In this document: positions 1 through 63,468 of the stretch, in pieces
How positions within the stretch are numbered: position 1 is the stretch's first letter
Layout of the letters: every line of letters begins with the position of its first letter
Assembly: GCA_965178125.1 (NCBI GenBank)
Contig: OZ237743.1
Coordinates: forward strand, 248,001 to 312,000
Direction of reading: 5' to 3'
Source: Bilabrum cf. latius
Taxonomy: Eukaryota
Length of the DNA: 64,000 bases
The notes under the pieces: generated by a model
The model's input: the letters and a program-made list of their open reading frames with translations, nothing else
What the model was told of the DNA's origin: nothing
Database searches by the model: none
Made by a program: the position numbers and the translations under genes

Positions 1-537
1 TTTTTGATTCATGGAATTCCCACGTTTTGGTTGCAGGGAAATCGAGCGATGAAGCAGGCGCTGCAACGATCCAAGGATTGGATGATGCTGCTCTTACCGG
101 GCCCAATTTCTACTGCAATCATCAGTGCCGTTATCATGTTTTTTGCTAGGTTCAGAGAGCCGGGTTGGCTCGATTACACTGGATGGGCAATGAATGTTGG
201 GCTGCTGTGCCTGACCCTCTGGCAAGGGTGGGAAGCAGCCAAGGACTCAAACAAAGACAAGCGCGACAAGTCATTCAATTCGATTATTGGGCAGGTTGCT
301 GCCGGGTGCGGTGCGTTTTTGATCGCTATGTTCACGCAGTTGGGCTGGCTGCTCATTCTGGTCATGGTTGGGGAGCATGCGTATGAGTTGTATCTCGCAT
401 TGGCCCCCTTGCTTGGGGCCATGCAATAGGCTGGTACGGCTGCCTCAAGCGGTGAAGATGGCGGAGACGACGCCGGGAAAGGCAGCGGTGGACGCAAGCC
501 TGGCAAGAAAGCCAGGGGGAGCAAGAAAAACCGATGA
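1..537 (+). CDS. 3' part of a small multi-pass membrane protein with a basic C-terminal tail ending SKKNR (KKxx-like ER retrieval signal); 5' end outside the window
   Basis: ORF 4..429 has several hydrophobic segments. Reading TAG 427-429 through adds AGTAASSGEDGGDDAGKGSGGRKPGKKARGSKKNR to TGA 535-537, followed by AT-rich sequence. Confidence 0.65.
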
Positions 538-623
538 CTCTGAATTTCCATGCACTTGCAGACAAACAATGTATCATTTTATCAATTTTTGCATTGTTCT
601 GCGGCCACTGAATGTGGCTTACA

Positions 624-3600
624 TCAAGATCCAACCCCTCGCCCTGTGGAAGCTGCCCTGGCCAGCCGAAGTCGCTTGGATCGCCTCGGGAGCGTTGCAG
701 GGACCAGCCCACGTCCTGCAGCATCACCGTTCTGGCCGCGAGCCAAAGGTTGGGATTGAAGTTGGCAGTCTGCCTTGCCTTGCGCTCCACCGCGCACCAC
801 TCCTTGCGTCGCCGGCATGGTGCCTGCTGCATCGTCCAGAGCAGGCGAGCAGGTCCCAAGCACCTCATCAATATGAAGATCCACAGCACGGTCTGCAAAC
901 AATGCCTCGGGACTACTTGTAGCATCAGTTTCTCTTGCAGGTGGAGACACGGGCCGACTCCGCTTGTGCCCAGCCAATTGCCTGCCTGGTTGCCGGCATG
1001 ACGACCTGGCAGCCACGGCGGACGCATCGATTTTGGATCGAATGTGATTATCCTATGCGCCTTGCTCAGCATTAGATATCGACCCAGTAGGTGCGCTAAT
1101 GCCAAGCCTCTCAGATTCTTGGCTGTGCTGCAGCGGTGCACTGTACCCTGCGCTCTGCTGTGTCGCTGCCCATGTGGATGCGACCGCCTGCAAGGTCTAC
1201 TTGTGCACCGACCGGCTGACCGAAATATGCTGACACACTTGCTCGGTACCAACATCAGGTCGCAGCAATGGTGCTTGCAAGCCCTTGTGCCATGCAGGTG
1301 AGCCTCTGGTGACTGCACCGCTCGGTAATGGAGGAACAGCCGGAGTACGCATGGCACCGGCAATTCCAGACTGCTACTGCTGCTGGGCCTGCAACTGGCG
1401 CTGCTCATGTACTCCCAATGTGTGCGCTACATATTGCGATCTAGGTTGCCCGATCACCTCGCTACGCATGACCAGGCCATAGGACGCAGAGATCGACATG
1501 GAATATCCCGTGTTAGTGGTACGCTTAGCTGGAGTGGAACCGCGTGCAGTGGCAACCACGGCTGCATTGTGCAGGCGTAAGGGTTCGACCTGCACACCGG
1601 AAACTCTAGCAGCTTGCATGCTAGATGCTGGCGCAGACGCGTGCAGATGGTCCTAGGACGAGGCGACGGCAGAATGTGTGGCCAAGTCGACCGAGTTGCT
1701 GCCAACACCATCATCTCTCGACTGAGCTCCAAAGGGCGAATGCGACCGCTGCGGCCGGGTGATTCTCTGCGCTGGGGTGATCCTGTTTCCATCAGTGCCA
1801 CCAGTCCGTTGTCCCCCCCCACCCTCGATGCCGTCTTTGGCCATGGCACCGAACGCCACGAGAGCTTCTCCAGCGTCCACCCGCTGCCTGGCCCTCGCTG
1901 TCTTCTCGTGGGATCGGCGGCGGTGCGACCCCGTGCGCATTCTCGGAACCGTCCTGCCTACGCGACGCAGGTGTTGCAGCACGTTCGGATGCACGTCCAT
2001 ACCCATGTTGAGGCCTCTGCGACGACCACCAACAGCGACACGAGAAGGGCCGTGGCGCGGCGGACCAGCGCTGCGGTCGGTGCCTGTCACGAGCCCGAAA
2101 GGGGAGACACTCCTTCGGAGGTCGGCAGAGCCACCCAGGCCAGTTAGATGACCTCCGGCGGCCACTTGCTTTTGTTCGATGGCGGCAGCTGCAGACAATC
2201 CCACTACGACAGCCAGTCTAGTCTGCGTCGGCGACACGAAGTTCACGGTGTCTGTCCCGCTGTTTCCAGCACCTACACTGCTTGTCTTTCGACTGGAGGC
2301 ACCGAGTGGGGGGCTCGCTATCTAGTGAGGCCTACTAGCGGCAAGGGACGCACGACCGTCCTAACTCGCCGAGCCATCGCCGTCCCGACGCTGGCCGTCG
2401 CGCCTGCCCATGCGAACCCTGTCGACCCATTGCACGTGCCGGCTCTGATGCCGCCTGCTGCTGCCCTACGCCTCTTCGCGGTACTGAATGGAGCTGGGCT
2501 ACGCTCCTTCGTTCAAGGCCACCACGGAGTCAGCAGGGCCGCTTTCCCCTCGCAGGCTAACTGGAGACTCCGCACCACCTGCAGCCGATCGTCCCGAAGT
2601 TGAAGATGCGGATCCGTCGTCGGCCGTGCCAGACGTTCCAGCTGTTGCTGCAGCTACCGATGCCGATCCATCTATGCTCCTTTGCGTTGGTGGCTGCACG
2701 CCCGTAAGCATTCCCTCATCTGCTGCAGGTGGCACCATGGTCGGTTTCGTTCGGGTTGGTCGCGTCGGTCCCACCGTCGATGCGCTCTTGTTGTGAGCCT
2801 GTTCCTCAAAATGAAGGTCACCATGATTCAGCAAGATGCTCCTTAACTTCAGGTCTAGCCTGTGCCGAGGCTTTCTTTGAATGAAATCGGGATAATCGAC
2901 CGAGAGCTGCTGCCAGATTCCTTCCGTTCGGCCTGAGAATCGCCTGCTGGGTATACCATAGCCGCGTCTGGAGCGTCGAAATCGCCTGTGCGATGCAACT
3001 GACGCACCCGATGTGCTATCATCCGTTCCTGGATCATCACTGGTCGCCCATCCCATGGACTGGCCGGCTGCCATCCCGCGGTAAGCGCGGCGCCCCGTGC
3101 CGACATTACGATGGGCCCTCGCACGTCTTCGATTCCGGCTGCTTCCGTCGCTGCCGGTGCCGCGAATAGATGAGCCACCTGACTGACTAGTGTCACTCAG
3201 CACACTCCCTGTCGTGCTGCCAACAGTGCCCACCACGCTAGCTTGCCCCCGCTAGTCAACTCGCCGACTTACTCCCCAAGGCTGACCGCCAGACACCGTG
3301 TCAGCAGCTCGTACCAAGTCAGGCTGCGAGATTCCCGCTGAACCATGGGACTGCAGCGCGTATGTGCTCCATTCTTTGCCACCAGTCCGCGAGGTCGGCG
3401 ACTGTAGCACTACTGTTGGCTGCTTGCGGTCTTCCATGCCGGCATTGGCACGGCTGCTGTGCGCGCTAACCGCTGAGCAAGCTGACTCGTATGCGGAGTC
3501 ATCGGGCTCGACCGCCCTACGCGGTGGGAGGGCGGGCCGATTGCGAGGAGCACTCGACTATGGCGCGGCGCCAGGTCGCTACAATGTCCTGGACCGGGCA

Positions 3601-6600
3601 CTTGATGTCGGCCTCGGACTTCCCGAGTCACCGCTCCGACTCACATCGGACATCTCGCTGTCAGTGCCCTCCGCGCTCGAGGAGCCCACAGAGGAGCGCC
3701 CAGACGATCTAGACACGACTGAGGCACGAGACCCTGCGGTTGAATTTGGAGCTAGGCTGTCTCGACCGCGCTGCAGGCTGCGCCCATCGCCACCGTCCGT
3801 CGTGTCACCACCCTCGCTCTGTCGACCCATGGACTCCGCATCCGCATCGGATCCGGAATCTGCTTCAGCGGTCGCTGGTTGCTGCCGAGCACTAGCCACA
3901 CGGGGCAGCATGGACGGCTAGGGCATGCCCGACGGCAATTGTCGCGGCCTAGCGTAGTTGCCGCTACTGCTCGGGGGTCCCATGACCTTGTGCTGCACGC
4001 GTGTACTGCTTGTGCCGCTCATTGCCTCACCTGAGGTGGTGAACCTCGCCTAAGACACCGTTGTGATAGACACAGCAGCGGGTGGTGACCTGCCTTCGTG
4101 CAAGCCCTGTTTAGGCCCTGCAGTTCCGAGGGGGTGGGGAGAGCTCGGGCGATCTCTAGCAGGGCGGACTGGCAGGTCACCGCCAACAGTGTCACCAGCA
4201 CCAGCACCAGCACCAGCACCAGCACCAGCACCAGCACCACACTCGTTCTCCAGCAACGAATCACTCTGTCTGGATGACTCGGGATTGCCTGCAGTACCAC
4301 TCGTGTCTTTGAAATTTCCAAGTAAATTGGGCTACCGCTAATCAGGTCGTTGCGCGTGCTAGCTGTTGGTTGGTCGGTCGCGGTTTGAGCCTGCCGACTG
4401 CACGCTGCTTGCGTACGACGGTGCAGTGGCATATCCGCTTCCTCCACTCGCAAGCCTGTCTAATTCTTGGCTATAAGGAGGAGCATGAGCCTCTCTAGAG
4501 ACAGCTCGCAAATCGATACCCAAGCTAACGACAGTTGCGTTTTGCGGCTGAATGGGTGCACTCCCCAGTTGCAGCGATGCATGTTCGATATCCGGTTGCC
4601 TTGCTTCTGACTGAATCGAATTGCCACTACTACTTGCTACATGCGCAGAGGCACCACTTGCTTGACGTCGTCGTGATCTCCGAGATTGGACCGCGGACTT
4701 CAATCTCAGTGGCCGGGGCATCTCGCGGTCTGCCTCCTCGGAGTCGTCGGAGGACTCCATCGGTCGCCCAGGCCATCCCAGTGACATTTGACCGTGCCTC
4801 ATTGATGATCTTGCCAAACTACTCAATAGATACTTCTCTCTAATCCGCCTGCGGTTCCTTTTCGATGCTGCACTCCCACTGCCGCTGCTGCTGCGACTGC
4901 GGCTGCCACTCCCACTGGCACTGACGCTCGCGCTGTGCTTCACGCCAAGGCTCGTGTCGCCGAACGCTGTCCCAGAATCTCGTCGATGGCCACCGTCAAG
5001 CGCCTCTTCTATCATAGGCTCAGAGGTGTGTGCATGTCCAAGCTGCTGATCATCATGGGTAATGTCAGCTTCTTCGTCTGATGCCACGCTGGAGTCCCCG
5101 CCCTCGGACTTGTGGCGCTTCCGACGGTTGCGAAGCAGCGAGGCCGCGTATCCATCCGATCCGTCCTGCAGATACCTCGCCCAATTCGGGTTATGGATGC
5201 GCATGTTAACATCTCTTAGTCGCCGCAGCCGTCTCGCGATCAAACCGGGGGTCCTTGGATTGCGCTCGGCTGCCACTACCGAAGGAGGAATGCTTGAAGC
5301 GTGTGCAGTAGCTTCCGTAGACACGTTCGTGACGGGCGCGTCGACTGTATCTCCGCCAGAAATCGTGACATGGCCGCCATGTATCTTCTTCAGCGGCGCA
5401 CGACTCGGTACACTGCTGGGCACTTGTAGGCCAGCAAGGTGAAATAGCTGTTCATCCTCCCGTGGAACATGAAGTGACGCAGAGCTGGGAAATGTTATTC
5501 CTGACAGGTGCTGCGTGTGACCTACGGACTCATTAGATGTCGCAGCGGTCCGCTGAGTGCCAACAGTACGTGAGCTCAATGGAGCATCTGCGAGCGAACG
5601 TTGCAGCGTTTCCACAGAGGCCGCACTGCGCTACTGCGACAGCAATGCCTCCGTTGCAGCCCCAATACCTGCCATGACTTTGTCGCGAGGTGGCCGTAGT
5701 CCGGCCACACTGGGATCTGTCGAGTCGCTGGCGCTGGCGCTGGCGCTGGCATGTGACGCCTCGCTTGACGAAGCACCCTACATGGCGTTCAACATCGGCC
5801 CAAACGGCCGAGGTGTTCCACCAGTGCTTCTTTCATTTCGAGAGTACTAGCGCGAGGCAATGGAACCGGGAATAGTGCACTTCTTTGATTCAGCTCCAGT
5901 TCGGCCCGCTGTTCTGATTTGACTCACTCCAGCCGAGGAGCTACCGTTATGGCCCCCGTTCCCAGTCGCCGTATCAATGCCTATTCTTACAGCTGACTCT
6001 GAATCGGACGGTGACAAAACTGCTGCATCAGACCTGACAGACAATGCTCTGCCAGCTGTAGCACGGCTGTAGCTCATGCTAGCAAGACCGGCTGATGATG
6101 CTGCAGAAGCGCGCAAATGCTCGGTCGTCATTGACCTGGACACGGAAGACGCATGACTCCACCCGAATTGGTATGAGCTGGGAGAAATTGGTCCGGCTTG
6201 TGACACGTATGGGTAATTTGGCTGCAGCATAGCCTCGGTTCCACTATGAAGACCTGCAGAGGCAGCCAAAAGTGGCACTCCCTCCGCCGATCGTCGCAAC
6301 GATGCTGAAGTGTCATCCTGCATCGGTGCAGATGGCAACACAGATGTGAGCAAGTCTTTCTGTGCGGCTGCCGCGATGGACCCAAGGTGCATAGATATGG
6401 CAAGCGGGGCCGAATGAGGCATCGTGTATCCCCTATGAACAAGCCACTGTGCTTGGAGCTGCTCGAGACCCAGCTGTGCCGAGCTGCTCACAGGTCGTGG
6501 CTAGTTGCGAGCAGTCGGGTCAATGGGCGGTCGAGCTTCTTCCGAAGGATGCAACGATGCTGACGAATACTGCTAGCCTGCTTGTCTCATGGAAACAATC

Positions 6601-7686
6601 GCTGGGGCTGGGGCATCCACGTGCGCTAGAGTCGAGTCAGCCGTGGATAACGCGTGCAGGGCCTCAGATGACGCTGCCGCTGAACTCCAGTTCCACTCTG
6701 CTCCTCGATCCGGGTAAGAATGCACAGCGTATTGTGGGACAGCAGGGATGCCGGCTGTTGGGTGCCGCAGCGGCTGTCCGCGCGGCGTGGCAGTCCCGCT
6801 TGGAGTGGACAACGGGGCACTGCTGCTGCTCCCGCTGCTCGCTGGCCGTGGTGCTGCTAGCATTTCTGCCGGGCCCCTCGCACTAGGTGCGATCACACCT
6901 GTCTGGTTTCTAGCTTGCATTTCCGCATCTGATGACGCGGGTGCCACTGGGCTTCGAACCTCCTGATTGGCCTGTGTGCAGTCGTAATCTGCACGTCCCG
7001 GCAACTTCGGTCTATGCCAGGTGCCTGCTAGTGGGGCGGGGCTGCTGGCTGAGCTCGTCGTTGGATGTGGTGGTGCAGCAGCACGCCCACGACTCCAGCT
7101 TATGGACGGTGTCGGCTAAGGTCTGCGCTGCAGAGCGCCTTGAGGGTGCCCACTTGCCAAGTTGAATGCGCGGCGAAGGCCGTCTTCCGAAAGCGTGACC
7201 ATCTGTGCCGGCGGGGCCTCCCAGCTCTCGTGAATCTTCCTTAGTCTTTCAATAGGGTGGCCAGAGCGCCGCGCTGACTGTTCCGGGGATAATCTGAGTT
7301 CACACACGATCACGTCGAAACCGGCGCTCTTGCCGACGGACCAGTAGTGCCGAAAGTGCTCTACCAACGCATTCACCTGGTCTACAACGACAAAGGTCGT
7401 TCGATGCTGCTCCACGGCTTTGGCAAACGCCCTCTGTGCTGCCCTCCGATACGCCTCCAACATGCTAGCATCAAACTTAAACACCCAGCGGGACTCCTCA
7501 GCTGAGCCACCTTTCTGCTCCACCAAGAAATAGTCGTTCAAACTGTGCAGCATTGGAGAAACAAAGCCTCTTGATATAGCCACTTGAAGCAGCAACTTGC
7601 CAAGCTCGGTCTTCCCTGCTCCAGGAAGGCCACGCAATATCACGCAAAGCGGCCGCCGGTTACCATCGGTCCCAAACATCTTCATG
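624..7686 (-). CDS. YLPM1/ZAP3-like P-loop nucleoside-kinase domain at the N-terminus followed by ~2100 aa of low-complexity sequence; the true 5' end may include further upstream exons
   Basis: Motifs VILRGLPGAGKT, SLNDYF, VVVDQVN..HF..YW....SAGFDV and WEAPP resemble the YLPM1 kinase-like domain. ORFs ending at 7116, 6573, 5847, 4359, 4050, 3579, 3252, 2499, 1653 and 1374 share one frame, separated only by TAG; the frame ends at TGA 624-626. Confidence 0.75.
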
Positions 7687-8179
7687 CTTGCGAATATCAG
7701 CGGTCTGCTGGATCTGCCGTCTACGTATAGATATATACGATCAATTTGTAATCTGGTCAGCAACACATGCCTAAAGTCTGCAAGATTGTTCTGCTGTTGC
7801 AGTTCTGGAAATAAACCAGAGATACTCAATAACTGCACGGAACAAATACGAACATGTTTTTCTCCTGGTGGGGGAGATGGACCCTTTATGGGCCCTAGCC
7901 ATAGCACATAGTGCTTTGGCTTTATTCTCCCTTCCTATGGGCTGGGAGAAGCCGACGCCTGGATTGGCATTGTCGGCTGCACCGGGTTCGGTGCCTGTGC
8001 TGGTTGAGCAGCACAGCCCTGTTCAGGCGTCCTGGAGTGTCGTCTGCGCAGCGGAAGAAGAGCTAAATAGCTCTCGATTCCACTCGAGATCCCTGCGGGG
8101 GCTGCGAAGTGGTTATGGCCCGTTCGCCGATGTGCGCGGGAAGGTCTACGACCAAACGGTCGGGAAGGTGTTTACCGCC

Positions 8180-9014: not shown

Positions 9015-12000
9015 ATGTCCGTATCAAACAAATTGTTGAAGGCCGCGGCTGAGGCATCTTCCAGCAGCCCGATGAGCTCCAAGCATGGTGCCATACTGGT
9101 CTCTGGGGGCAAGGTGGTTGCTGTTGGTGCCAACTCTAGACGTACATATGCCCGTGGTGAAGTTGTCTGCTCCGTAAGTTTTAAATTTCGTTTTTCCCCA
9201 CTCAGCTTGTCGTTTCGTGTCGAGGATGGTCACCTGTTCGCTTGCTGAATCGATATCGCAGGTCCACGCTGAGCTGGATGCCCTGTTGTCGCTCAAGATC
9301 AACGGTAAGGCGTGCCGTAGCGGGAAATAGACTGCTTTAAAGTATAAAATAGCCATGCGTAGCTACGTTGATACATTGGTCTCTCTCACTTTCGTCACGC
9401 AGGTCGCCCGCTACCGGACAGCTTGTTTGCACAGGCAGAGTTGGACTACGACAACGTATGGCCCGACTACAAGACGCAGGTGTTCGGAGACAACCGGGGT
9501 GCGCAAATATTTGAAGAACCAAGGGGTGGGAAGGTGTCGGGTCCTGCCGCGTCAGATGCGTCCGCGCTACCTTCGGAACAGCACGAGCACGCCGGCTGGG
9601 AGCGCGCTCTGATGCAGATCGACAGCGAGCAGAACCAGAGGCAGCGCGTCGAAGGGGCCGCAGCGAAATCCCGCAGAGGAGGACCCTCCTCCGCAGCTGC
9701 TGGCAGCGAGGAGCACCACCTGCTGCAGTCCTTCTTCGAGGCCCAGGAGGCAGGCGCCGTCACCGTGCCTGCTGCCTCCAGTAAGCATTCGGCCACTGCT
9801 GCTGCTGCTGCTGCTGCTGGTGGAGCGGTTGCTGGCTCCGGCGCTAGTGCCAGCCCCAGCAAGCGCACCGAAGGAGGATACAAGGTCGCAGGCCCTGAGC
9901 ATGCTGTCGATGGCGTGTCGATGCAGAAGAACCGACGCAAGAAGAAGAAGAAGAGGGGGAAGGCTGCCCCTGGCAGGGCCTTCCTCATGACACCCGAGCA
10001 GGAAGCTGCGTGGATCGTCCTCGCACCCCACGTGCCCCCCGCTCTTCCGGCACAGAAGCAAGCCCCTGCTGGTGGCTCAGGGGCGGCTGGTGCTTCTTCC
10101 GCTGTAGTACACCGCTCAGCCTAGAGCGACACATCCGCAGCCGTAGCTGCAGCTGTAGCTGTAGGTGGGGCAGGAGCAAGGACAGCCGATTCGGCCGTAG
10201 GTGGGGCCAATGCCTGGAAATCGGGAGACAGTTCGAAGAGAGTCCATCACCAGGGCGAGGATGAGGACGCAGTCGATGCAGGGCGGCCCGGCGGGCAGAG
10301 CGCCGGGCCGCCGTTGCATTTGCTGGGCCGGGGGTCAGAGCCGTGCTTTTTACCAGGCGAACCACGGCTAGAAGCTCTATTACCACGGCGACCGGCCCCG
10401 CGCCAAGGGTGGAGCGCGGGGGTCGGGCCGGTCGTCGTGGAACAAGGCGCGGCAGCAGCAGCAGCTGCAGGGGCTGGGGCAGTCGCTGGACGTGCGCTCC
10501 TCGAGAGCACTCATGCGGAGACTGACCGGTCTGGCAGAGCAACAGCAGAGCACTGGGAAGGGCCGAGGGCCGGGGGCCTCCGCTGCCGCTCGGTCCACCA
10601 GCGGATCCGTCCTTCCGGTCGCCTTCGCCGCGCTGGCGGGTGTGGGCACTCGGTACGGCCCAGCGGACGACGTGACCACGTAGGGGCTGTCTGCCGAAGA
10701 CGCGGTGCTGGAGGCAGAGGTGCGGGGAGCCAAAGGAAAGCCGGTGCGGCAGAGGAAGCTGCGGCGCTGGCAGCAGCAGGCCCAGAGGCGTGGGCCAGGC
10801 GGCGCTCTGCAGGCCGGGTGCAGCAGCAGCACAAAGCGGGACGGGGACAGCAGCGTGGGGGGTGCGTCCCGGTCGACTGGGTCAGGCGGCAGAGTGACCA
10901 CTGCCACACCGACCGCAACGCAGCCTGCAGGGCCGCCGTCGAGGCTCTCGCCCGATCCAGCCAAGCCATGCAATGGGTTCAACGGGCGCAAGGGCAGTTC
11001 CGAGGCGCGCTCCCGGCAGCCGCTGCGGGCCGAGAGTCGTGAGTCCGACGGTGCAGGCATGGCTGCCGAGGGATCCTATGGTGATGAGCGGCTGGCTGCC
11101 TCGACTCACCACGAGGCTGGACATGCGGCTACCGGCAGCGACACCACTGCGTCGCTGGAGTCGACTCCGGGCAAGGCTGCGGGTGCCGGTGCTGGCATCG
11201 CTGCAGAAGAAGACATCGAAGCTGCCCCTGCCGGAAGCGACGCTGAAGGCAGCGAGGGCGGAGCGTCTGGAAGCGACAGCGACAGCGATGAGCTGAAGGT
11301 TGGCACCGGCAGCATCGGTGAGCGGAGCCCAAGCCCCGCATCGAGCTGTAGTGGCGGGATTTCGCGGCCCGATGCAGCCAAGGAGGTGGGCTCTGGGGGC
11401 AGCAGCGTTGGCAGGGGCAGCAGCGCCAGCGATCGCAGTCGCAGCAGCGACGCTTTCTCATCGTGCCCATCACAGCCCAACTCTGCCTGCTCCGCTCCCG
11501 CCACCACCGGGCTCACCGCCGCGAGGCCAACCGGTGTCATCAGGCCGAGCAAGGCGGCTCGCGCCGCCGCCCGCAAGTAGCGCAAGGCAGCCAGGGCGGC
11601 CCGCAAGCTAGAGAGGGTGCGAGCAGCCGTCGAGCGCGCCAGGATCGCAGACAGCCTCGGGTCTGGGCAAGCCCACCGCGGATCAGGAGGCGGGGCCGGC
11701 TGCGGGCTCGGGCTCCGTCGGAGCAAGGCCAAGGGCAGCGCGACCTCCGTTGCGGGTGGCCCGGCCTCTGCGAGGGGGCACGGTCAGCCGTTTTTGCGAG
11801 CTGCGGGCGGCCGACGCGGCCGCAGGTGCGGGACGAGCGTGTCTGGCCTGTCCCTCGGCGACCTGGACCCCGGCGTGGGGGCGGGGGGATCCCCCTGGGG
11901 GACTCGCAGCAGCGGGGGTGACAGCGGCAGCTTTGGGGGGGCGGAGGACGCTGGGTCGGATGGTTTCCCCGGGGATTCCTTCGGCGGAGAGGGTCCCGGT

Positions 12001-13212: not shown

Positions 13213-13329
13213 TTACAAAGATAAAATTTCGATACAAGTTATAAATGCCTTCAATCCAGTTCGGTTCCGGTCTGCGTGCAGCAGCTGGGGATGACGTTGG
13301 CCACACATTGCCTTCGCCTCGCTAAATTG

Positions 13330-24086: not shown

Positions 24087-24258
24087 ATCTTGCTTCTCTT
24101 TGCTATTTTGAGCAATGAAAGTGTGAGTATCACGTTTTGAGGATCTCCCGCAAATAGGAGAGTTTGCTTTTGCGGGCAAACCAACACTTCCGGTTTATAT
24201 GCGATTCAACGTGACCTATACTTGGCAAAACATCGTATCCCGTTTAAACAACATACAA

Positions 24259-33194: not shown

Positions 33195-33324
33195 GCTGGT
33201 TTAGCATGCAACTACCTGCGTCTTAGAAAATTTCATCAGCATTAAGGTAAATGAGGCATATTGTGGACGATTGCGGCGATCGGAGCCCTGACATCACCCG
33301 CTGGACGCATCTATTCGGTTCACG

Positions 33325-51300: not shown

Positions 51301-54300
51301 CCGCGAGGTAGTCAGGCACGATGGCGCTGCCGCCCCCGGTGAGGGCACCATCCTAAGGCCGCATGACAGACGGCGGGCTCGGACCGCCCCTTCCAGCTGC
51401 TGAGTCAGCAGCACCCAAGCGAGAAGCGCCTACGGCACGCCGGATCGCACCAGCTCCAATCCCAGCTGGCTGCCTCTTGCTGCCTTTGTTGCCCTTAGGG
51501 ACCATTAGGGCCATAACGAAGCCAAGGCTAATTCCGGTCTTTGTCACCCGCCTGCTGAGACGCCGCAGCGAGGCTTTGCCGCCCTTGTTGGAAGGCAGTG
51601 CAGGCGGCTGTACCCGCTGTTTGCTCAAAGGCTGCGGCGGTTGTGCACTCGAATCCTCTTCGCGTTTCTTCCTGGCTGGCGTACTGGGGCTGGCCTTGCC
51701 GTCGATCTCGCCATTCCCGACACTTGCACTTGAAGCTTCATCCTCACCGTGGACTGCCGCGGTTTCCGCTCCGTCGTGCTCCTCGTCTTCTTCGATACTC
51801 TACTGCGCAGCACCAGCATCTTCAGCTGGTGCAGCAGCTGCTTGTCGCGCGCTGGAGAGAAGTATTTCCGTGCTGTCCACATGGGCAGACTCGTCCGCGG
51901 CATTTTCCGCGACCTGCAGCCCGAATCGATGCATTGCATCCCCGAGCGCAAGAGCCTGCCCCACCGCCTCGAGTTCCGCCTTCGTGTGCGGGGACATCGG
52001 CTCTGTCACACTCGCGTTCTCTTGCTCCTGCTGCAAAACACGAGATACAGCCGGATGCGTTCCATCCGGACGCGGGTCTTTGCCCACGCTGCCACCGCTT
52101 CCGTGGTCATTGCCACTCTATGCCTTGGCGCTGGATGATGCAGCCCCGCCGCCCGCGGTCTTTGCCTTGGCAGGCACCTGCACCGGAATGCGTATGCTAG
52201 ACGGCACGCTCCCGCTTGCACCCGCGCCCTGCCCGGTTTGGCTGGCAGATGTCTTGGCGCCGCCGCTTGCAGCAGCACGCAGGCCGTTGCGCGCGCCCCG
52301 CAGCCCCGGTGGACGGAAGCCGAGGGCTGCCCATGGGTCGAGCCACTTGATAAATTCCTGCTGGTCGGCAGCTATACCAATCACCAGTGAGGACGGCTGC
52401 AGAACTGCCTTTGGCATGCCCACGGCTAGGAAGTACCGTGAGTCCTTTCCGGCTGCTGCTTGCATGCCCGCAGGAGCAGACTCCGGCTCGCCAGACCCCC
52501 CTGCCCCGCTAGCCGCAAACATGAACTGTGCCCCTTGCAGCAGCCAGTTGGCCTGGTGGCCTGCTCCCTGCGCGCCCTTGCTCCCTGGATTCCCATCCCG
52601 CGCCATTCCGCTCGTCCTTGCCTGGCTCCGTGCCAGCATCTGGCGCATCGCTGATTCCACACGGTTGAAATCAACGCCGGGAGCCGTGTCCCGGCAGTCC
52701 TACACTGCGGCTCGCACCAGCTGCTGCAGGTCCGTGTTGGACGCCTGGGCCTGCAACTAAAGCAGCCTGCTGAGCGCCTCACATGTCGTGGTGACCTCCC
52801 TGGCACCTTTGCGCAATTCACGCAGGGCTTTGTGCCTCCACCTGCGCCTGGCGGCCCCGCCCTCCGGTGGACCGTCTTCCACCTCCTCACTTGCTTGCTT
52901 GCGCAACTCATCCAGGCCAGGCTCCTCCTCCCCTTCACAGGCTAGCCGTACGGCACACGGCCCGCCCCCGGCAACGAACACCTCAACGGCCCGCTCGAGG
53001 CGGCGACTGACCGTTGCTGCGAGCACAGCAAAGTGGGCCGCGTGAGCGGCAGCGACCTGGCTGGGCTTCGCCTTCGTCCGCGGGATTACAGCTCCGATGA
53101 TCTGCACCGTGCCGTTGGAAGCAGTGCCAACGGCTGCAGAAAGGTCCCCGACGGTCATCTGACGAGCAATGGCAAAACTGGGCGCCGCGGACGAGTAAAT
53201 TTCCTGGGAGGCCCCAGATTTGTACTCCATGGCCCATGGGCGATCCATGGCAGTGATGGAGTCTGCCCGCGACACGATGAGATTCGTGAGCAGGGCGGGA
53301 AGACCGGGCACTCCCACGGAGCAACCCAGCATGGAGTAGTCGATCGAGTCGATCGGCACGCAGTTGTTCGGCGAAACACCGCAGCCCTGCGCGAATTTGA
53401 GGGAGCTGATCGTTCGAAGCATTACGACGAATCGAGGGATGGTCGGCCGGTGCTGCTGCCTGGAGCCAAATGCCTCCTCGGCAACGTCGGCCATGCCGTC
53501 ATCATCCTCATCGTCGTCATCGTACTGCAGTCCCGTGCCGAGTCTTCGCCTATCCTCTGGGCCCTGATGCCGCCCGCAGCATGCACAGCAGAAAACGTAG
53601 TCTAGACAGACTCGCATAGGCTTAAACATGCCGCCTATTTCGGAGCAAAAGGCTCCAGCCTGCGAGTACACCCGATTCATCGTCGTGTCACTCTGCTACA
53701 AGCCCGCCCGAATGGCATCTTCCTGCAGCAGGTAGTGTCGCATGCGGAGAAGAGCCAGGAGGTTCGAGCGGTCCTCGGCCGGACCATCTTCGGCGGCACG
53801 GGAGGGCAGCACCACAACCTGCTCTGCGTGCGCCACGGCAGCCCTGTCGACGTCGTTCTCTGAGGTGGCTGCGCCCACGATGAGGAAGAGCCTGTCCTTG
53901 TAGTGCTCGGCATCGGTGTGCTTGCCCTTGCCACGGAGAAAATCAGCGACGTCCGAGGAGGGGGTGCCTAAGAAGACCGTGTCTCGGTTGCAGTTGTCCG
54001 AGTTGTCGGGATGGTACAGCTCCCTCAGAAACTGCTTCAACTGCTCGAGCGAGGGGTCTCCCATGACCACGATGTGGGGCTGTGCTTCGGGCCCGCTGCT
54101 GTCCTCGGCGTCCTTGCCCCCGGCACCCCCTGGCCTGCAGTAGCAGCAGAGAGACGACTGGAGTGCCGAATCGTCGTCCTCCTGCAGCAGCGCGTTCTTC
54201 TGAATGGACGCCTTGGGCAAGTACACGGAGGGGCTGCTGGTCTTCAGGTTCAGGATAGCCACAAACTCGCTGGTGGCAGAGGCAAACGCCGCCAGCCCCA

Positions 54301-56147
54301 AGAAGATAAAGATAACGATCACAAGCCTCGAGACCGTGTGGTTGGGAGAGTAGTCGCCATAGCCCACGGTGGACAGCGATATGATCACGAAGTAGAACGA
54401 CACAAAAGGACTCAAGACCTCGTCCTCGCACCGGCCATCCACGGCCACAAACGAGTAGGCACCGTCATCGCACCGGTACAGAGTCCATAGGGCAGAGGGC
54501 ACGGTGGAGTCGATGGGGAGCTCACCGAGGAGTTCAAGCACGTACACGGTGGTGCTGATCACGTAGAGTGCGGCGAACGTGTTGATGCCAAAGGCCGTGA
54601 TCCTCCAAGTCGCTGACCGGACCCACTCCTCCCCTCGAGCCTCGGCCGCGGCCGCTGCGTTGCCGTCCAATGGGTCAAGCTCTACGGGGCTGTCCAGGCT
54701 CTCCGCATTCCGCAGCACATCCAGCTCCTCCTCGTCCTCCAGCGTGTAGCAGACCACGCAGCAGTATCGAGCCACGTATTGCACCCAACAGCTGCTAGGC
54801 CCTTCTCCAGAGCCGCCGTCTTCCTCGTTAGTTCCCTCTGCCTTGCCCCACTGCTGGGCGGGGCGACTCTTTGCAGAGCTCCCTGCGCCTGTTCCGCTCG
54901 GCGGTGCGGTTGCGACGAGCGAAGAGACTTGCTGCACGCCCGCCCCGACTGGCTTGGACGACGTGCCCGTGCCTACTGAGCTGGCTACCCCGCTGCTTAC
55001 GGTGCTGGGCTTGCCCTGCCCAGCGTCCGCCCGATCGGCCAGCTCTTTGGCCGCCTTGTCGGAGTCCCTTGCCACGCTGATGGCTTCCTGCTCGCGCCTG
55101 TCGGTCTTGATCGCCTCGTCGACCGCCTGCTTAGAGACGACGCAGCAGCAGGTGAGAGTTTCCGGGGGATGCACTCCGCACAGCCCCCCGCCGCACAGGC
55201 CGTCGTCTGTGGCCGGCGGCTTCCTGCGGATGATCTGCTCGATGACCGTGACGAGCTCGCGCATGTAGAGGGCTCTGACGAACGCGAGAGAGAACCATGT
55301 GCGACTCGCAACAAACGGAATGCTTCCACCATCGACCTCGTCCGGTGGGAGGCAGCGCTGGTCCGCGACGCTCCAGAGGCTCAAATCCCCGACGTCTTCG
55401 GGCCGATCTCCGGCAGCTTGGCCGATGTACTCGGTCGAATCCCCCGTCGAATCCAGCAAGGACCACGCGCACACGCTTTGGACCTGTATAAAGAAGCTTC
55501 CAATAGTGAGTACGTCGATAATAGTTCCAAGGTGCACCATTGCGTCGAGCTTCGGGCGCTCGGCGAATCGAACTATCAAATTCACTGCAAATAGGAGCAC
55601 GCACACAAAGTGCACCCACATCTCCCACTAGCTAATCGAAAATGAGCTACCCTCTACCGTTAGCAATACACAAACGACCTGCGGAAAAACCGAAGAGACA
55701 TGGAGAGAGCGGATAGCTGAGGGTTCAGAGGAAGATAGCTGGCAACTCAGCCGTAACTGATTGAATACTCACGGTCGAGGGAACATTCTGAAGCATGATG
55801 CGCAGAAGATTTGCCATGAGTGGATGCCTACTGTATGCCCCGGTCACTTGTTTCTGCAAAGCCTGGTCTGCTTCGCGTACGCATCGACATAAGGGTCGGC
55901 ATAGGCAGTCATAGAGTGCGACTGCTGGGATCAGCGCAGCAATCGCGAAGACAGTAACAAAAAGTTGATAAAATACAAAGTCCCACGAGAGCACGCAAGC
56001 AACGCCATCGAGCACTGAGTTTCCACAGAACTTGGCCAGAGGGTTGCTCTCAAAGAAAGACGGCAGATTCTCTTCAGCGCCAGGGATCCCACTCGATTCA
56101 TTGGACGGAAGATCTTCCAGCAGGTAAACTCGAAGAAAATCTTGCAT
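45395..56147 (-). CDS. Very large (~3550 aa) BK/Slo-type potassium channel with RCK domains and long insertions; intron 55679-55772
   Basis: Pore FYFVIISLSTVGYGDYSP, S4-like WFSLAFVRAL, RCK segments HIVVMG, FLRELYHP, VGVPGLPALLTNL, EYKSGASQEIY, GTPYDPMDLGRAGV and RALPYVYTSPP. One frame with 20 TAG and no TAA/TGA until TGA 45395-45397. Confidence 0.88.
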
Positions 56148-56447: not shown

Positions 56448-59400
56448 TCAAAGCTCAACTGCAATCCCTGTTTCCTCGCCCTTGGCCTGCACGTCCATCA
56501 TCATCGCGTCGCTCTCCCAGAAGGCTCCAGTGACCCACATCTCCTTGAGGCCCGCCCTGCTCCAAGCCGGCATGTTCTGCTCCAAGATCGCACCGTGGAT
56601 CCAGGAATGAGACACGTCCAAGAACCGGAGCTGCTCCAACGGGGATCCGAGCCGCCTCCACACGATCCCAGAGCACGGGGGGCTGCTGCTGCCAGCGCCT
56701 CCAGAGGTCGGCCCGCAGGGACTGCTGCTGCCCCCCTACAGAGCAGCAACGGCAGCAGCCGCCCCTTGCATCTTGCCCATGGATGATCCCCTGTAGCCTC
56801 GTTCGCTCACTTCCGGCCTGCAATCTGCTGGTACCCCGCTGCCCGACAGCATGCCTCGCCTAACCCGCCGTGTTGGCGCTTCGATGATATCGCTGCTGCT
56901 TGACCCCTCCACCGCCCCGCTCTCTTCCGTGGGTCTCTTCTCCCTTGATCTACCCGTCGCACCTGGTTGAGCCCCGGCCCCATCCATTGCCGTTGAGGCA
57001 TTCCCCCCTACCCCTACCACCGGCGATCCGCCCGTCCTGCTTCGCACCCTGCGGCCAGGCAGGAGCTCCTGCGGCACGGCTCCCTTGAGCAGAAAGCACC
57101 TCTGCAGGATATGCATGGTTCGGCTGGAGAGCTGCTGCAGCGGGGGCTTGCGCGCCAGGGCTTGGTCGAGGGCGGGCACAGGCTGCGTGCAGGAGACATC
57201 GTCCATGAATCCATCGGTGGATTGAGCGATCGCACTCCTGGTCCTGGGCTTATCAAGGACCGAGAAATCGAGGGATCGAGCGGCGGGCAGCCTGCCAGCC
57301 CCGACCCTGCGCACGCCAAACCTCGATGCAGCGACGTGTTTCAGTTGCTTTCCTGCCGGGCGAGCTGGATCCTGTCCCGTGCCAATGCCAACTGCATGCT
57401 GCTGCGTTGCGTGGCCGGCAGCATTTCCATCCTCTGCGTCGTCCTCCTCTTCCTCCTCGAGGCTTGCCATGCTGGCCTGGCCCGCCCCTGACTCCGCGCC
57501 TGACGATGCCTGCGACCTTGGGCTGAAGAACAGCCGCTGCACCGAGCTGCCAGGCAAACCATCCGACGCGCGCGACGCATGCCCCAGCGTGAGACCTGTG
57601 CCCGACCCAGAGGACGAGACTCTGTCCTGACCCTAGCCGTCCCTCCTCGCCTGGGAGCCAGCGCCTGAGCTAGCATTCGATCGCGTGCTCCGCCTTGTTC
57701 GGGTCCTTCCAGACGCCGCCGGGTGCGTGGACAGCGGGGTAGGCGCGAAGGCCGATAGCCCCGCCAGACCGGGACCGGGGCCGAGTGATGATCCGTCCGC
57801 AGTTGCAGAGGACGATGAGGATGAGGCGGCAGATGAGGACGAAGAGGACGACTGCAGAAGAGCACCCGCAGCATAGCTATTCGCTGGACCGGTCGACGGA
57901 GCAGCCGACATTGGGAGCGACGGCGGCACGGCTTGCGGCACGCTGCCGGCGCTCGCTGGGGCAGTGGAGCCCGGGCTCATGGTCGCAGCCGGGCTCCCGA
58001 ATGGCAGCTGCGCCCACCCGCCATGCCCCCCACCACGAGCACGCAATCCGCCGGGGTGCTGTATCCCAGTCCCGAGGCCAGCTGATGGGCCTGGTACAGC
58101 TGCACCGGTGTCTAATTCGCTCATCCGAGCGAGCCCGCTGAGCCCGGCATGCGGCCCCATGGCTTGCCCACGGCTGCGGCCGGCACCGTCCTCGTCCTCG
58201 TCTCCGTCCTCCATGGGAACCGAAGCGGGGCGTTTCTGATTGTACTGACGAGCGCGCGGATGGCTCGTGGTTGAAGCCAGCTGGCCCGGCGCAGATCGGC
58301 GGCCACCTGCCGTAGCCCAAGCACCCATTTCATCCTCGCCGGCCTCTTGCACCCTGCGAATCCTCGCAGCGTTGGGACCCCCTGAGGACTGAACAGCGTC
58401 TGTGTCCACGCGGCACAGCAGCGTCCTGCCGTCAGACCCGAGCACGATCGACACGCCGGGCGAAACGACCACACCCCCCTCGCCCGCGCCCTCACACGCG
58501 CGCCTCACCTCTGCCCTGGCCTGAGCGGCGGCAGTGGCAGCCCCAGTCAGCTGGGTAAACACCTGCCCAGACACCTCGCAGTGTGACAGCCGCAGCCGCT
58601 GCAAAGCCGGCAGAGACCCGATGGCATCCAGAAACCGCCGAGAGCTCTTGCGCCCGATCAAGTTGTTCCCCAGGTCGAGCCGCTGCACCCCCCGCAGGGG
58701 TGCCAGGAGCCGCACCAGCCCGCTCAGCGAGTGCATCGTCAGCCGATTCCCCGCAATGTCCAGCTCCTCCAGCATGCCAGCGCTACCGGCCTGCAGCGCA
58801 GCATTCAGCACGATGGCAAGCCCCTCCATGCCCGCCCCGCAGTACCTGAGCCCAAGCTCGCGCAGGTGCGGGGCCCTCTGCAGCAGGAGCGCCAGGCACC
58901 TGGCCGCGCTGCCGTCCAGTGCTATCCCGTTGATGCGGACTTCGCGCAGCCGGCTGGTGTTCACTGTGTCTGCCATCGTGGCGAGAAGCTGCCTCAAGGA
59001 AACCGCTTCAGTCTCTGCGTCGCGGTGCGGGCTCCGCCTGCCCGCCCTGGCGCTGCTCGGACTTGAGCTGCTCCCAAACGCGACCTGACCGCGCGGCTCT
59101 GAAAACTCAGCAGATGCGTAGGCGCCCATGCCTGCGACGATGTGTTCAATGAGTGGAAGGCGGGGATGCGGGCTAGAGAATCGGCGGGCAATGTTGCAAT
59201 GGCCGATTCTGGATTGACAACACGCGAACGCGCGGGCCCAGCGCGAATAGCCACCAGATGTCAGAAGAGCAACGATCGCAATGTGAGCGTCGTCGACGTA
59301 ATCTCTATGCACAAAAGTCGGAGGCAAATACGAGAGCAAATGGAGGCCTCACCGCGGATACGAATAAAACGGGGGCTGAGTGGTCTCTGCCGGGACCGCA

Positions 59401-59978: not shown

Positions 59979-60617
59979 TCAGGCCGCCATCCTTGCACAC
60001 GCAAGCCGGACCGCAACACGGTCCCCCACCCGCTTCAGCCCAAGAACCTCCGCCAGCTCGCCATCCGTCGTGGCAGCCAGCTCCCATACAGACCTCATGT
60101 GCTGCTTGCCTGCCTGCAGGAGCAGACGGGAGGACGGCGGCGTGCTTCCCATCGCAGCCGAAGCACCGCTGCCTGCCACCAGCCGGAGAGAAACGTCGCG
60201 CAGGACGTGTGTCCCCACCCCACACAGGCCCACAGCCGCCCATCGCATGCTGCTGGTGACCTGACCATCGAGCTCTTGCGACTGCTGCCAGTGAGCGGTA
60301 GACCCAGCTACCGCGGACCATGACTCATGAAGCGCGCTGTACAGCCAAGTGGCAGCCCAAGCTTGAGCGGGGACCTGGTGTCCCGGAATAGGGCAGTCAT
60401 TCAAAGCGGACAATTGTCCGTGCAAGCGGACAATAGGGCAGTATGTGCGACACAGGTGCAAGCGTCGACGGCATAGTACGCCGGCGGGGTCCAGCTCATG
60501 GGAATCTGAATGCGACTTCGCTACAGCTTTTGACCTGTCATGGCCTGGTGATAGGTTCAAGGAAGCACACAAGCCAGCCAGCAACGCGGCGGTGGCTTGG
60601 TACTATAAGTACTGCAT
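59979..60617 (-). CDS. Small protein with a C-terminal SAM-like motif
   Basis: Starts MQYL*YQATAALLAGLCASL (TAG 60603) and ends WELAATTDGELAEVLGLKRVGDRVAV; TGA stop. Confidence 0.5.
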
Positions 60618-60786
60618 TTTGGTTGATATGTACCTGTTCATTCGGCGCGTCGCTCTGCGCTGGACCGCCGGCGTGGATACTCCCTGGCAATTGTAGCGTG
60701 CGAACCGGAATGCAACCGAAACGTACGTGACGCGCGTACGCGCACGCCACCGATGATACATTTCACTAGCAGCCGAAACGGGGAGG

Positions 60787-63468
60787 ATGTCGCTGTATGC
60801 CGCAAAATCGGGCAACGTTGACTCTCTCAAGACAGCGCTTGCTGGGGGTGCAGATCCCAACTGCAAAGATGTCGAGGATGACAAATCGCGTCAAATCCTT
60901 GCAGTAGCTGCCTCCCGCGGTCACACTGAAGTGGTTCGAGAATTGATCAAGGCAGGTGCCAATGTACATGCAACATCAGACTTACGCGAGTGGTCCGGCT
61001 GGACCTACGAGCTGTGGTACGGCTCTTGCACAGCTCTTCACGAAGCTGCCAGAAAAGGCAGGACGGAGTGCGCGATAGCTCTTTTAGAAGCAGGCGCAAG
61101 CAAGGAAGTAAGGAATTAGCAGCGTCAAACGCCATACGATTTGGCGCGGGCAGAGGGCCATCGTAAAACTGCGGATGCCATAAGAGCCTTCGATCCGGTT
61201 GCACACTAGAAAAAGCAAGCCGAGGAGGTCGCAAGACAACAGCACGATGCCAAAATGAGAGAAGAGAGAGCTCACCGACAGCTTGCAGAAAAAGAAAGAC
61301 AGCTCGAAGCTCAGGCGCAAGAGATCGCGAAACTGAGGGCAATGGCAGCGGAATCGAGCCACTCGGAGGCCACAAAGAGAGCCGCTTTTGATGAGGCTGC
61401 AGATCCCGTAGAGGCGGAAAAGGCAGCAGCTGTCCCATCCATGGCCATTTCAGTCCATGTGGACCATGGCGGGTAGACAACCAGCGCCCATGGGCCTGAG
61501 ATTCCTTGGAGCTCAGAGCACCAGACAGTCGTGTAGTCCGTGGTAGCTTCTCACGATGCAGCCGTTCGCAGCGCGGAACTCTCTTCGATCGAGGGCGGCG
61601 ACTGGTTCGCGGATCTCAGCGGCAAGGTTAGATTCGTCGCGGGCGGTCAGGGGCGGATCGATCTATCAACTGTGCTTGCCCCCGATATGCTCGAAGGCTC
61701 GGTGCTTGGCGGCAAGGCAAAGATCGTTCCGGCAGGCATAGGCAATCGAAGGCCGGGGCCAGCCGTTAGCTTTGCGCCCGGGACGCTCCCAAGCGAGGCC
61801 TCTATGTCTAGCATTGAAGCAGGCCGTATCCCCCCTCTCAACCTGCCCGGTGGCAAGGGCGGGGTGGGACAGGGGGTGAACGGCTTCGTGTTCGCCGTGG
61901 AGTTGCAACCAAGGGAGAAGAGCAAACCTCCAGCGCAGGTGGCCCTGAAAGGGCTGTTGCCTGTAGTTTCGGCCAGCCAGTACTACTCGTCTGTCTTGCG
62001 AGCCGGCCACCAGGAGGAGTGGCGGGTGCCAAGAGTCGTTGGAGCGCATCCAAACATCGTGGCAGTGAGGCACTCCTTCTTTGGTAGCTCCATGGCTTTG
62101 GTTCCATGGGCAGGCGATTTTCTCATGTTTGGAGCTGTGGCGCGACGCACTACCTGGCTCGTCATGCCATTGTATCCCACCAGTCTGTAGTCCAGTACGA
62201 AGAAAGTGCCTTGTTCTGGCCAGCGGGAGGCTGCGCTTTGGTTGCTGCAAGCGCTGCAAGCAACTCAGCACATGTTTCGCCGGGGGGCCGTCCATCGTGA
62301 CATCAAGGCAGACAACTTTTTCCTAGCAGGGGATGGTCGTCTGGTGCTGGGCGATTTCGGGGCGGGCTGCCTTCTTTTCTACGGTGGACGAGCAGACGCG
62401 TTGGAGCTAGAGTACCAGGAGCACCAGAGAGAGCAGGCGCTGGACCACGCAGCTGCAACGGGGGCAGGATCTGTGGCTTTCGATGAAGCCGGCAGGACAG
62501 AGAGTGGCGGTGCCGAGGAAGCGGTGAGTGAAAGTGCATCAGATGGCACTGCAGCAGAGGCGGAAGAACAGGCGTTGCCGGAAGTTTTCGAAGGTGCTGG
62601 AGAGGACGCCCTAGAGTTTCCATTCATGGTCTCTGTCACGAATTCTGGCGGCGCGTGGGACTGCCGAGCGCCTGAGCTGGTTGCAATGGGGCAACGGACG
62701 CGACCGCTGAAGAAGGATTCGCACGGAAGGCCGCTCCGGACCTTGTCACAAGCCTACGAGATGGCGGATGCATGGGCCGCAGCAAAAACTGTGTGGATGC
62801 TCCTTGCCAGCTCAGATTCTGCACAAACCTTTCCTAGCTCAGCGAAGCTGTACCGAAGCGAGGAGCTGCCAGCGCTTCCGAGCGCAGGACGGCAGCTTGA
62901 GGCGATCCTTCGCGGGCTCCTGCAATCCAGGCCGAGCAATAGGCTTCGTCCAGAGGACGCAATCAGCGCACTGAAAGCTTTTCTCTACGGTCCAGGCACA
63001 CTGAAAGGCGTGGAGAGAGCCGCAGCGCCGGTTAGTTCCGTTCATACAGGTGTACTTTTGGCGCAACATGCCTCTGTACCGGCGGCCTCGGGTGCGGGTG
63101 CAGACAGCAGCGTCGGTGGTGCGCCAGATACGGCCTGGATGGTAGAGGAGGTTGAAGCACAGCTGCAGCTTTGCGCTGCTTTGGATGGCCCCGCAGGTAC
63201 CCATCGGGACGGTGCATCCAAGAGCATATGGTGGGGACTGGCCGGGCAGGCACGGTTTCTGCGGCTGCCCATAGGTGAGGATGCATACGACGCTTTTGGC
63301 TGGGGTGCGGCTCGGTGTGTCGACGGTGAGTCGAGCCTGTGGGACCGACAGATGAGGCGACAAACCCTGCTCAGAGGAGCGTGTCCCGCAGAGTCAGCAG
63401 CCGCTTTATCCAAGGACTGCAAGCAGCTGCTGGATGTCATCCGCAGGTATGCTCTTGGTGACTCGTGA
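60787..63468 (+). CDS. Ankyrin-repeat + coiled-coil + PINK1-like Ser/Thr protein kinase
   Basis: Ankyrin motifs (TALHEAARKG, TPYDLA). Kinase motifs GQGVNGFV, VALK, HPNIV, HRDIKADN, DFG, APE, ADAWA. One frame with TAG at 61117, 61207, 61474, 61534, 62188; TGA 63466-63468. Confidence 0.88.

Follow-up and report, generated by a model that had tools for sequence, protein, structure and literature searches.

UAG as a sense codon, most likely for glutamine, and UGA as the stop codon of every gene in a GC-rich 64-kb DNA segment

The 64-kb stretch of DNA analysed here (the window) uses UAG as a frequent sense codon, does not use UAA as a sense codon and terminates every one of its genes with UGA. The amino acid specified by UAG is most likely glutamine. 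The genetic code is probably a nuclear code resembling NCBI translation table 15, in which UAG is Gln, UAA and UGA are stops, and UGA is strongly preferred. Rare codes of this type are already known, and the window most likely provides another case.

The window itself is most likely nuclear DNA of a compact, GC-rich (60%), intron-poor microbial eukaryote. A eukaryotic nuclear origin is indicated by genes for a mitochondrial-type elongation factor Ts (EF-Ts), a ubiquitin-specific protease (USP), a delta-14 sterol reductase of the ERG4/ERG24 family (ERG24), a C2H2 zinc-finger protein, an ankyrin-repeat protein kinase and an EF-hand protein, all present in the window. The USP gene (34769..42124, plus strand, 4 in-frame TAG, stop TGA 42122-42124) comprises exons 34769-34867, 34969-35027, 35144-35249 and 35339-42124. 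Its three GT..AG introns are spliced out with 0 mismatches in contigs from runs X5 and X6; the joins restore the Cys-box of the protease, and the TAG-bearing USP frame is found in these spliced contigs. Ciliate genomes do not typically have long multi-gene contigs, spliceosomal introns or 60% GC.

With TAG taken as a sense codon, the window contains frames of 3,458, 2,524, 2,266, 1,749, 1,291, 1,074, 967 and 904 codons, whereas the longest frame under the standard code has 1,397 codons. The first of these, on the minus strand, encodes a protein of 3,408 amino acids (45395..55621, stop TGA 45395-45397), which we take to be potassium-channel-like from its TVGYGD filter. The initial annotation had given this channel about 3550 codons; measured from stop to stop it has 3,458 codons, and from the first ATG 3,408. 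The codon usage described there (20 TAG, no TAA, CAA in use) was found again, the frame having 20 TAG (19 after the first ATG), 41 CAA, 120 CAG and 0 TAA from stop to stop.

In-frame TAG codons were also found in genes encoding a variety of other proteins. On the minus strand these are a 2,452-aa low-complexity protein (624..7982, with 23 TAG and, from the first ATG on, 0 TAA; stop TGA 624-626), an orphan membrane-like protein of 1,741 aa (15173..20398, 11 TAG, stop TGA 15173-15175), a member of the NAD-dependent epimerase/dehydratase family encoded by at least two exons (22689..24194, stop TGA 22689-22691), a protein of 1,269 aa whose APP1-like match is weak (24259..28068, 9 TAG, stop TGA 24259-24261), the C2H2 protein with 12 tandem zinc fingers (42330..43892, 2 TAG, stop TGA 42330-42332), a leucine-rich-repeat protein (56448..59129, 2 TAG, stop TGA 56448-56450) and an orphan protein (59979..60761, 1 TAG, stop TGA 59979-59981). 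Two further minus-strand genes belong to a multi-copy orphan family: paralogue 1 (29051..30442, 4 TAG, stop TGA 29051-29053), which has a spliced 5′ exon past an intron near 30456-30567, and paralogue 2 (31601..33019, 2 TAG, stop TGA 31601-31603), 69% identical to it. The plus strand carries the 3′ part of a gene whose 5′ end lies beyond the window (1..537, 1 TAG, stop TGA 535-537) and the gene of the ankyrin-repeat protein kinase (60787..63468, 5 TAG, stop TGA 63466-63468).

For the codon counts, 18 coding stretches were chosen conservatively. These 17,197 codons include 97 in-frame TAG, 0 TAA and 0 TGA. The positions of TAG along the genes match those of CAA and CAG (KS p=0.35), and the TAG closest to any stop is 49 codons away from it. 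A context-dependent stop/sense code of the Condylostoma or Blastocrithidia type was rejected for these 18 genes, since TAG is uniform along them (KS p=0.40) and 0 of 18 end in TAG.

Glutamine is the most likely meaning of TAG, with moderate support from a few conserved columns and with two cases in which TAG aligns with Leu. UAG would then make up about 12% of the Gln codons. The EF-Ts gene (33325..34476, plus strand, stop TGA 34474-34476) has two in-frame TAG, one of which falls in an F-Q column where 12 of 13 aligned homologues have Q. A 13-residue polyQ run of the channel protein is encoded by two TAG together with 11 CAG/CAA codons without interruption. One further TAG sits in the context QQQqQ. 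Comparison of paralogues 1 and 2 revealed both CAG and CAA opposite TAG. These observations argue against UAG specifying another amino acid, Leu or Glu, with UAA as in the table-15-like code, a reading that we consider very unlikely. Leu has precedents as the meaning of UAG in the rhizarian exLh and in some phyllopharyngean ciliates, and in well-conserved contexts TTG stands opposite TAG in a paralogue and CTG (Leu) of the window stands opposite a TAG of the syntenic relative L001 described below; the second EF-Ts TAG falls in an E-dominated column. Most TAG sites compared between the window and L001 are variable positions and give no clue to the amino acid. We also counted against a non-Gln meaning the frequency with which a Gln codon adjoins TAG (14 of 98), as compared with Gln codons (90 of 713) and Leu codons (138 of 1,395).

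If TAA related to TAG as CAA does to CAG (193:522), 35.9 in-frame TAA would be expected in the coding set; with the lowest NNA/NNG ratio, that of TTA/TTG, the expectation is 13.0. The observed number was 0 (P=2.7e-16 and P=2.2e-6, respectively). Read in their two alternative frames, these coding stretches contain 76 TAA in total. TAA is also present in introns, and in-frame TAA was found in four TGA-bounded frames, each time upstream of the first ATG; in the 5′ leader of USP it precedes the ATG by 11 codons. The earlier statement that TAA occurs neither in frame nor as a stop holds for the coding frames and the 18 gene ends, but not for the pre-ATG parts of these four frames.

Because of these codon counts (0 TAA against 13-36 expected) the Gln role that TAA has in table 6 is excluded here. 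The window shares with that code, used by ciliates, dasycladaceans and hexamitids, the Gln meaning of UAG and UGA as a working stop, and differs from it in that TAA is not a sense codon. Table 6 is the commonest variant, UAA and UAG being mostly reassigned jointly (PMC5304391), and counted over both strands of the whole window, TAA is less frequent than the other two stop triplets (349 TAA, 912 TAG). That table 6 applies and TAA is merely scarce through GC bias is nevertheless extremely unlikely, given the shortfall from 36 or 13 expected codons (P 2e-6 or below) and the TAA content of the off-frames of the same genes.

The claim that all 18 reconstructed gene ends are TGA was borne out, each TGA closing a long or homology-supported reading frame. 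None of the 18 genes ends in TAA, although the non-coding DNA has TAA and TGA in the proportion 152:380 (TAA share 0.286, P=0.0023). With 18 genes, the fraction of stops that are TAA has a 95% upper bound of 15%. We also looked for TAA-terminated genes among the 130 TAA-ended frames of at least 50 codons: none reached the coding score of 8, the threshold for listing a gene frame. The best two scored 7.9 and 7.8, and both are antisense to ERG24. Frame 21175-21690, conserved in L001, was rejected as a TAA-terminated gene. The TAA that closes it lies in the intron (21620-21740, GTGAGA..TTGCAG) of a plus-strand two-exon gene (21202..22493; exon 1 21202-21619, exon 2 extending to 22493), which ends in TGA (22491-22493 in the window) in both organisms. 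The gene of the small EF-hand protein (44265..44895, minus strand; two overlapping frames with an intron inside) has the highest coding score per codon of the window, and its stop is still TGA (44265-44267).

The lack of TAA among the gene ends could mean that UAA is in effect unassigned or terminates poorly, eRF1 having been narrowed to UGA in the absence of a UAA-reading tRNA, with UAA purged by selection and UGA left as the sole stop. We consider this rather unlikely. It is favoured by the deficit of TAA ends relative to the non-coding DNA (TAA, 28.6% of TAA+TGA), by the TGA end of even the top-scoring EF-hand gene and by a stop usage opposite to that of the described UAG-only organisms, where UAA dominates (PMC5304391). 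Against it, 18 genes leave room for as much as 15% TAA among the stops, and a marked preference for UGA is ordinary in GC-rich genomes. In keeping with the caveat of the initial annotation, UAA may be avoided in this organism: TAA is never a stop in the window, and is rarer at gene ends than the non-coding ratio predicts (P=0.002).

Evidence on UAA came from a relative. Alignment of the ERG24 clade against metagenome contigs gave 80 loci, of which the 53 of at least 3 kb were screened; a TAG-sense signal was seen only in L001, and the other 52 look standard. L001 is a syntenic metagenome contig whose ERG24 is 79% identical to that of the window. It carries four genes in the same order as the window, but not contiguously, as the window gene 15173-20398 is missing from it, and so are the genes that the window has between 22493 and 24259. 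L001 1-1584 is the orthologue of a plus-strand orphan gene of the window (10210..13212; frame open from 9991, first ATG 10210, stop TGA 13210-13212) and ends in TGA. The orthologue of 21202..22493 has the same two-exon structure, and L001 5460-8750, the orthologue of the 24259..28068 protein gene, also ends in TGA. In L001 TAG is used as a sense codon, whereas TAA is absent from 2,394 codons in which 9.5 were expected (P=8e-5).

The fourth L001 gene, ERG24, ends in TAA (TGA 3 of 4, TAA 1 of 4). The window ERG24 gene (13225..14890, plus strand) has its exon 1 within 13225-13848 and its last exon within 13841-14890, and its TGA (14888-14890) follows ...RIVPGIY at the C-terminus of the family. 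The end of the L001 protein, ...RIVPWVY-TAA, aligns with this conserved C-terminus, and P0127, P0128 and P0129 end at the same point. The occurrence of a TAA end in a contig with sense TAG favours the retention of UAA as a stop and argues against UAA as a poor terminator; this TAA belongs to another organism than that of the window, to one contig and to one gene. Together with the 0 TAA in the L001 coding frames, it also tells against table 6. The preference of the initial annotation for a UAG-only, table-15-like code over UAA+UAG=Gln is supported by the codon counts and by L001.

In the table-15-like code UAG would be read as Gln in cytoplasmic translation, UAA and UGA would stay terminators, and the near-exclusive use of UGA would leave UAA simply rare. 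By analogy with known codes (PMC5304391), a tRNA-Gln with anticodon CUA would decode UAG and be unable to pair with UAA, and eRF1 would have lost recognition of UAG. The 64-kb window encodes neither tRNA-Gln nor eRF1. ARAGORN found no tRNA in it, and Rfam at the gathering threshold gave no match in the window or L001.

The DNA runs X1-X4 contain the window at 100% identity, and no RNA run is listed as carrying it. Run X8, labelled 'algae metagenome', contains a closer relative, 91-93% identical to the window with about 1,500 differences. Searches with the ERG24 clade alignment against genome contigs, and with the multi-copy paralogue family against metagenome, genome and viral contigs, found no relative. 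A quick, weakly supported ERG24 tree placed the clade among fungi. A doubtful, though conceivable, extension is that the window comes from a possibly fungus-related, alga-associated new lineage in which UAG is Gln, UAA is disfavoured or nearly unassigned and UGA is effectively the sole stop. If this were true, its GC-rich state would be the opposite of all described UAG-only codes, where UAA is the main stop, and it might represent a step on the way from the standard code to complete UAR=Gln.

The closest described code is that of Iotanema spirale (Fornicata), in whose nuclear genes UAG is Gln and UAA and UGA are stops (UAA 104 and UGA 15 of the 119 genes scored; PMC5304391). As in Iotanema, Gln has taken over UAG alone, UAA has no sense meaning and UAG ends no gene. 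Unlike in Iotanema, where UAA ends 104 of 119 genes, UGA ends 18 of 18 genes of the window, and a UAA stop was seen only in the relative L001; moreover, the window genome is GC-rich (60%) and, by the one weakly supported ERG24 tree, unrelated to Fornicata. Table 15 has also been assigned to the phyllopharyngean ciliates Hartmannula sinica and Trochilia petrani, alongside which Protocruzia tuzeti is cited as a further case (PMC11687900). The window resembles Hartmannula and Trochilia in that UAG is Gln and is spread as the other Gln codons are; UAA is the dominant stop of these ciliates, whereas in the window UGA is the stop.

Amoeboaphelidium protococcarum (Aphelida) is reported to read UAR as Gln (Karpov et al. 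2013, as cited in PMC5304391, PMC6299283 and PMC11687900). Shared features are a stop-to-Gln change, an association with algae (suggested here by the relative from an algae metagenome) and a possible kinship with fungi (ERG24 tree). The differences are the GC content, which in Amoeboaphelidium genomes is about 40% (PMC10608142) as against 60% here, and TAA, which is reported as Gln there and is absent in frame here. The name Amoeboaphelidium does not appear among the 120 best ERG24 matches. An aphelid (Amoeboaphelidium) identity was rejected on GC content and on the lack of a named ERG24 match. Nuclearia thermophila has 44% GC.

UAA is the dominant stop in the rhizarian exLh, Iotanema and the phyllopharyngean ciliates (PMC5304391, PMC11687900). 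With UAG=Gln and near-pure UGA stops, a eukaryote that is GC-rich, intron-poor and not a ciliate would be a further independent case, at the opposite extreme of base composition; the paper library that we searched contained no report of such a eukaryote. GC pressure is not expected to eliminate UAG, a point in favour of an ambiguous intermediate and against codon capture. Such a case bears on how stop codons are reassigned and on the UAA activity of an eRF1 that has dropped UAG. In practice, gene callers that assume the standard code truncate such proteins at TAG, as illustrated by P0173, which stops precisely at a TAG of L001.

The code of this genome is probably of the UAG-only, table-15-like type (UAG as Gln, UAA and UGA as stops), with near-exclusive termination at UGA, a further case of a known code type. 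The UAG-only reading, already favoured in the initial annotation, was supported by the sense use of TAG, the lack of in-frame TAA and a TAA-ended ERG24 gene in a relative. The G+C content of the 64-kb window is 60%. With the standard code the longest frame has 1,397 codons and the window is otherwise cut into short frames; reading TAG as sense opened frames of 3,458, 2,524, 2,266, 1,749, 1,291, 1,074, 967 and 904 codons on both strands.

Eukaryotic genes were recognised in the window by Pfam: a mitochondrial-type EF-Ts with an N-terminal extension, a ubiquitin-specific protease (USP), a delta-14 sterol reductase (ERG4/ERG24), an NAD-dependent epimerase, a C2H2 protein with 12 fingers, an ankyrin-repeat kinase, an EF-hand protein, an LRR protein and a potassium-channel-like protein of 3,408 aa (45395-55621). 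The latter, very large for a channel of this kind, has one pore region amid mostly Ala/Gly/Ser/Gln-rich low-complexity sequence. The 20 TAG codons previously counted in the channel frame were borne out (19 lie past the first ATG), the length of ~3550 codons was not: the frame has 3,458. Contigs from two public sequencing runs (X5, X6) matched the window without mismatches and were joined over three GT..AG intervals, 34868-34968, 35028-35143 and 35250-35338, whose removal by splicing reconstitutes both the start of the USP and its Cys-box (GLENQGATCYMNSLLQALF). Since X2, a DNA run, is collinear with the window, the X5 and X6 contigs, from runs whose kind is not recorded and which we presume to be RNA, were taken as spliced mRNA from a nuclear genome whose introns are few and short.

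In-frame codons were counted in 18 conservative coding stretches (17,197 codons), each ending at the stop and beginning either at the first ATG or where the Pfam match starts. They contained 97 TAG, no TAA and no TGA, whereas the two other frames of the same stretches held 76 TAA, 249 TAG and 558 TGA. UAG is a sense codon in this organism and UAA is not. If TAA were Gln alongside TAG, the CAA:CAG ratio of the coding set (193:522) would predict 35.9 TAA (P=2.7e-16), and the most G-biased two-fold pair, TTA:TTG (29:216), 13.0 against none observed (P=2.2e-6). In four frames, frame-aligned TAA precedes the first ATG; in the USP gene it stands 11 codons 5′ of the start, and other copies lie in introns. 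The 130 TAA-ended frames of at least 50 codons all had coding scores below 8, the cut-off for listing gene frames, and the two best (7.9 and 7.8) are both antisense to ERG24. The only TAA-ended frame conserved in a relative, 21175-21690, was rejected as a gene: it consists of exon 1 and the intron (GTGAGA..TTGCAG) of a two-exon gene ending with TGA.

Glutamine is most likely the amino acid read at UAG, as judged from a few conserved columns. One TAG of EF-Ts falls in the F-Q column, where 12 of the 13 aligned homologues have Q, and the other in an E/D/Q column. In the channel two neighbouring TAG lie within a 13-glutamine run and one more in QQQqQ. Between two tandem paralogues (69% identical) the partners of TAG are TAG, CAG, CAA and, once, TTG; one TAG of the related contig L001, described below, is aligned with Leu in the window. 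TAG adjoins a CAA or CAG codon in 14/98 cases, the top rate among residues and near Gln's own (90/713). TAG positions along the genes resemble those of CAA/CAG (KS p=0.35), and the smallest distance from a TAG to the stop is 49 codons.

UGA is a stop codon in this organism; all 18 gene ends listed in the initial annotation are TGA (95% upper bound for the TAA share of stops, 15%). For the lack of TAA stops the initial annotation had offered mere GC bias, or an avoided or ambiguous UAA, as possible causes. In 11,258 non-coding bases (53% G+C, both strands) TAA:TGA was 152:380, and with the resulting neutral TAA share of 0.286 the probability of no TAA among 18 stops is 0.0023. The deficit is larger than the neutral ratio predicts, which would suit an organism in which UAA is avoided or poorly read. 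Stop usage is, however, seldom neutral, and GC-rich genomes often favour TGA strongly; the lack was therefore read as a real, unexplained preference and not as proof of avoidance, which we consider unlikely. T follows TGA at 9 of the 18 ends, and A, G and C at 3 each; efficient eukaryotic termination usually occurs with a purine directly after the stop codon. In four convergent pairs (537-624, 14890-15173, 22493-22689 and 42124-42330) only 86 to 282 bases separate the TGA stops of the two genes, which requires their 3′ untranslated regions either to overlap or to be very short.

The chief new evidence for the UAG-only code with UAA as a stop is the TAA end of one gene, ERG24, on one contig of another organism. 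An ERG24-clade alignment search yielded 80 metagenome loci, and among the 53 of at least 3 kb screened for TAG sense usage only L001 (8,752 nt, 58% G+C) gave the signal. Four window genes recur in the same order on L001: the orphan 9991-13212, ERG24, the two-exon gene and the APP1-like gene. The window gene at 15173-20398 and those lying between 22493 and 24259 are missing from L001, which makes the order non-contiguous relative to the window. Its 2,394 in-frame codons include 15 TAG and no TAA, where CAA:CAG predicts 9.5 (P=8e-5). The ERG24 proteins of L001 and the window are 79% identical over 355 residues and end with ...RIVPWVY followed by TAA and then TAG, and with ...RIVPGIY followed by TGA, respectively. 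Because the same final tyrosine ends the predicted proteins P0127, P0128 and P0129, TAA is, by this alignment, the apparent terminator of ERG24 in a relative with the same TAG reassignment. The in-frame TAG lies directly 3′ of the TAA (L001 3332-3337) and the nearest TGA 7 codons further, so any readthrough product would be short. The remaining three L001 gene ends are TGA. A public protein prediction, P0173 (198 aa), stops exactly at an in-frame TAG of L001 ERG24 (2924-2926, codon 224 of frame 2255-3334), which indicates that database proteins of this clade are truncated by standard-code gene calling.

In 2013 Karpov is said to have reported UAR as Gln in Amoeboaphelidium. This genus was not among the best 120 ERG24 matches, and its genomes have ~40% G+C (PMC10608142) versus 60% in the window. 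UAG alone is assigned to Gln in Iotanema spirale, where 104 of 119 scored genes stop at UAA and 15 at UGA (PMC5304391), and in Hartmannula sinica, Trochilia petrani and Protocruzia tuzeti, with UAA as the preferred stop (PMC11687900). The window shares the codon table of all four, but its stop usage is the opposite (UGA) and the genome is GC-rich. By extension from PMC5304391, a tRNA-Gln with the anticodon CUA would read UAG and not UAA, and an eRF1 with an altered N-domain would no longer recognise UAG. No tRNA genes or Rfam families were found in the window or L001. No GC-rich eukaryote outside the ciliates was found described with a UAG-only code in a literature search that covered few of the subscription journals.

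In a quick ERG24 tree the window, P0127 (a 96% relative), L001/P0173 and P0128 (a 69% relative) formed one clade (SH-aLRT 100), which this single gene tentatively placed inside an unresolved fungal group (SH-aLRT 93). A 91-93% identical relative occurs in a run labelled 'algae metagenome'. For 22400-42399, 100% identical contigs, spliced forms included, were found in runs of two other studies under two other organism names, so the organism is either present in mislabelled material or filed under several names.

In X2 the word depth of the tandem paralogues and their spacer (28400-33100) is 10- to 70-fold that of the flanks (up to 3,077 versus ~45). Pfam gave no family match for either paralogue or for the spacer frame 30733-31218. 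Numerous distinct loose ends begin at 31123 in X2, X5 and X6, and the segment looks like a high-copy family or a mobile element with a boundary near this position.
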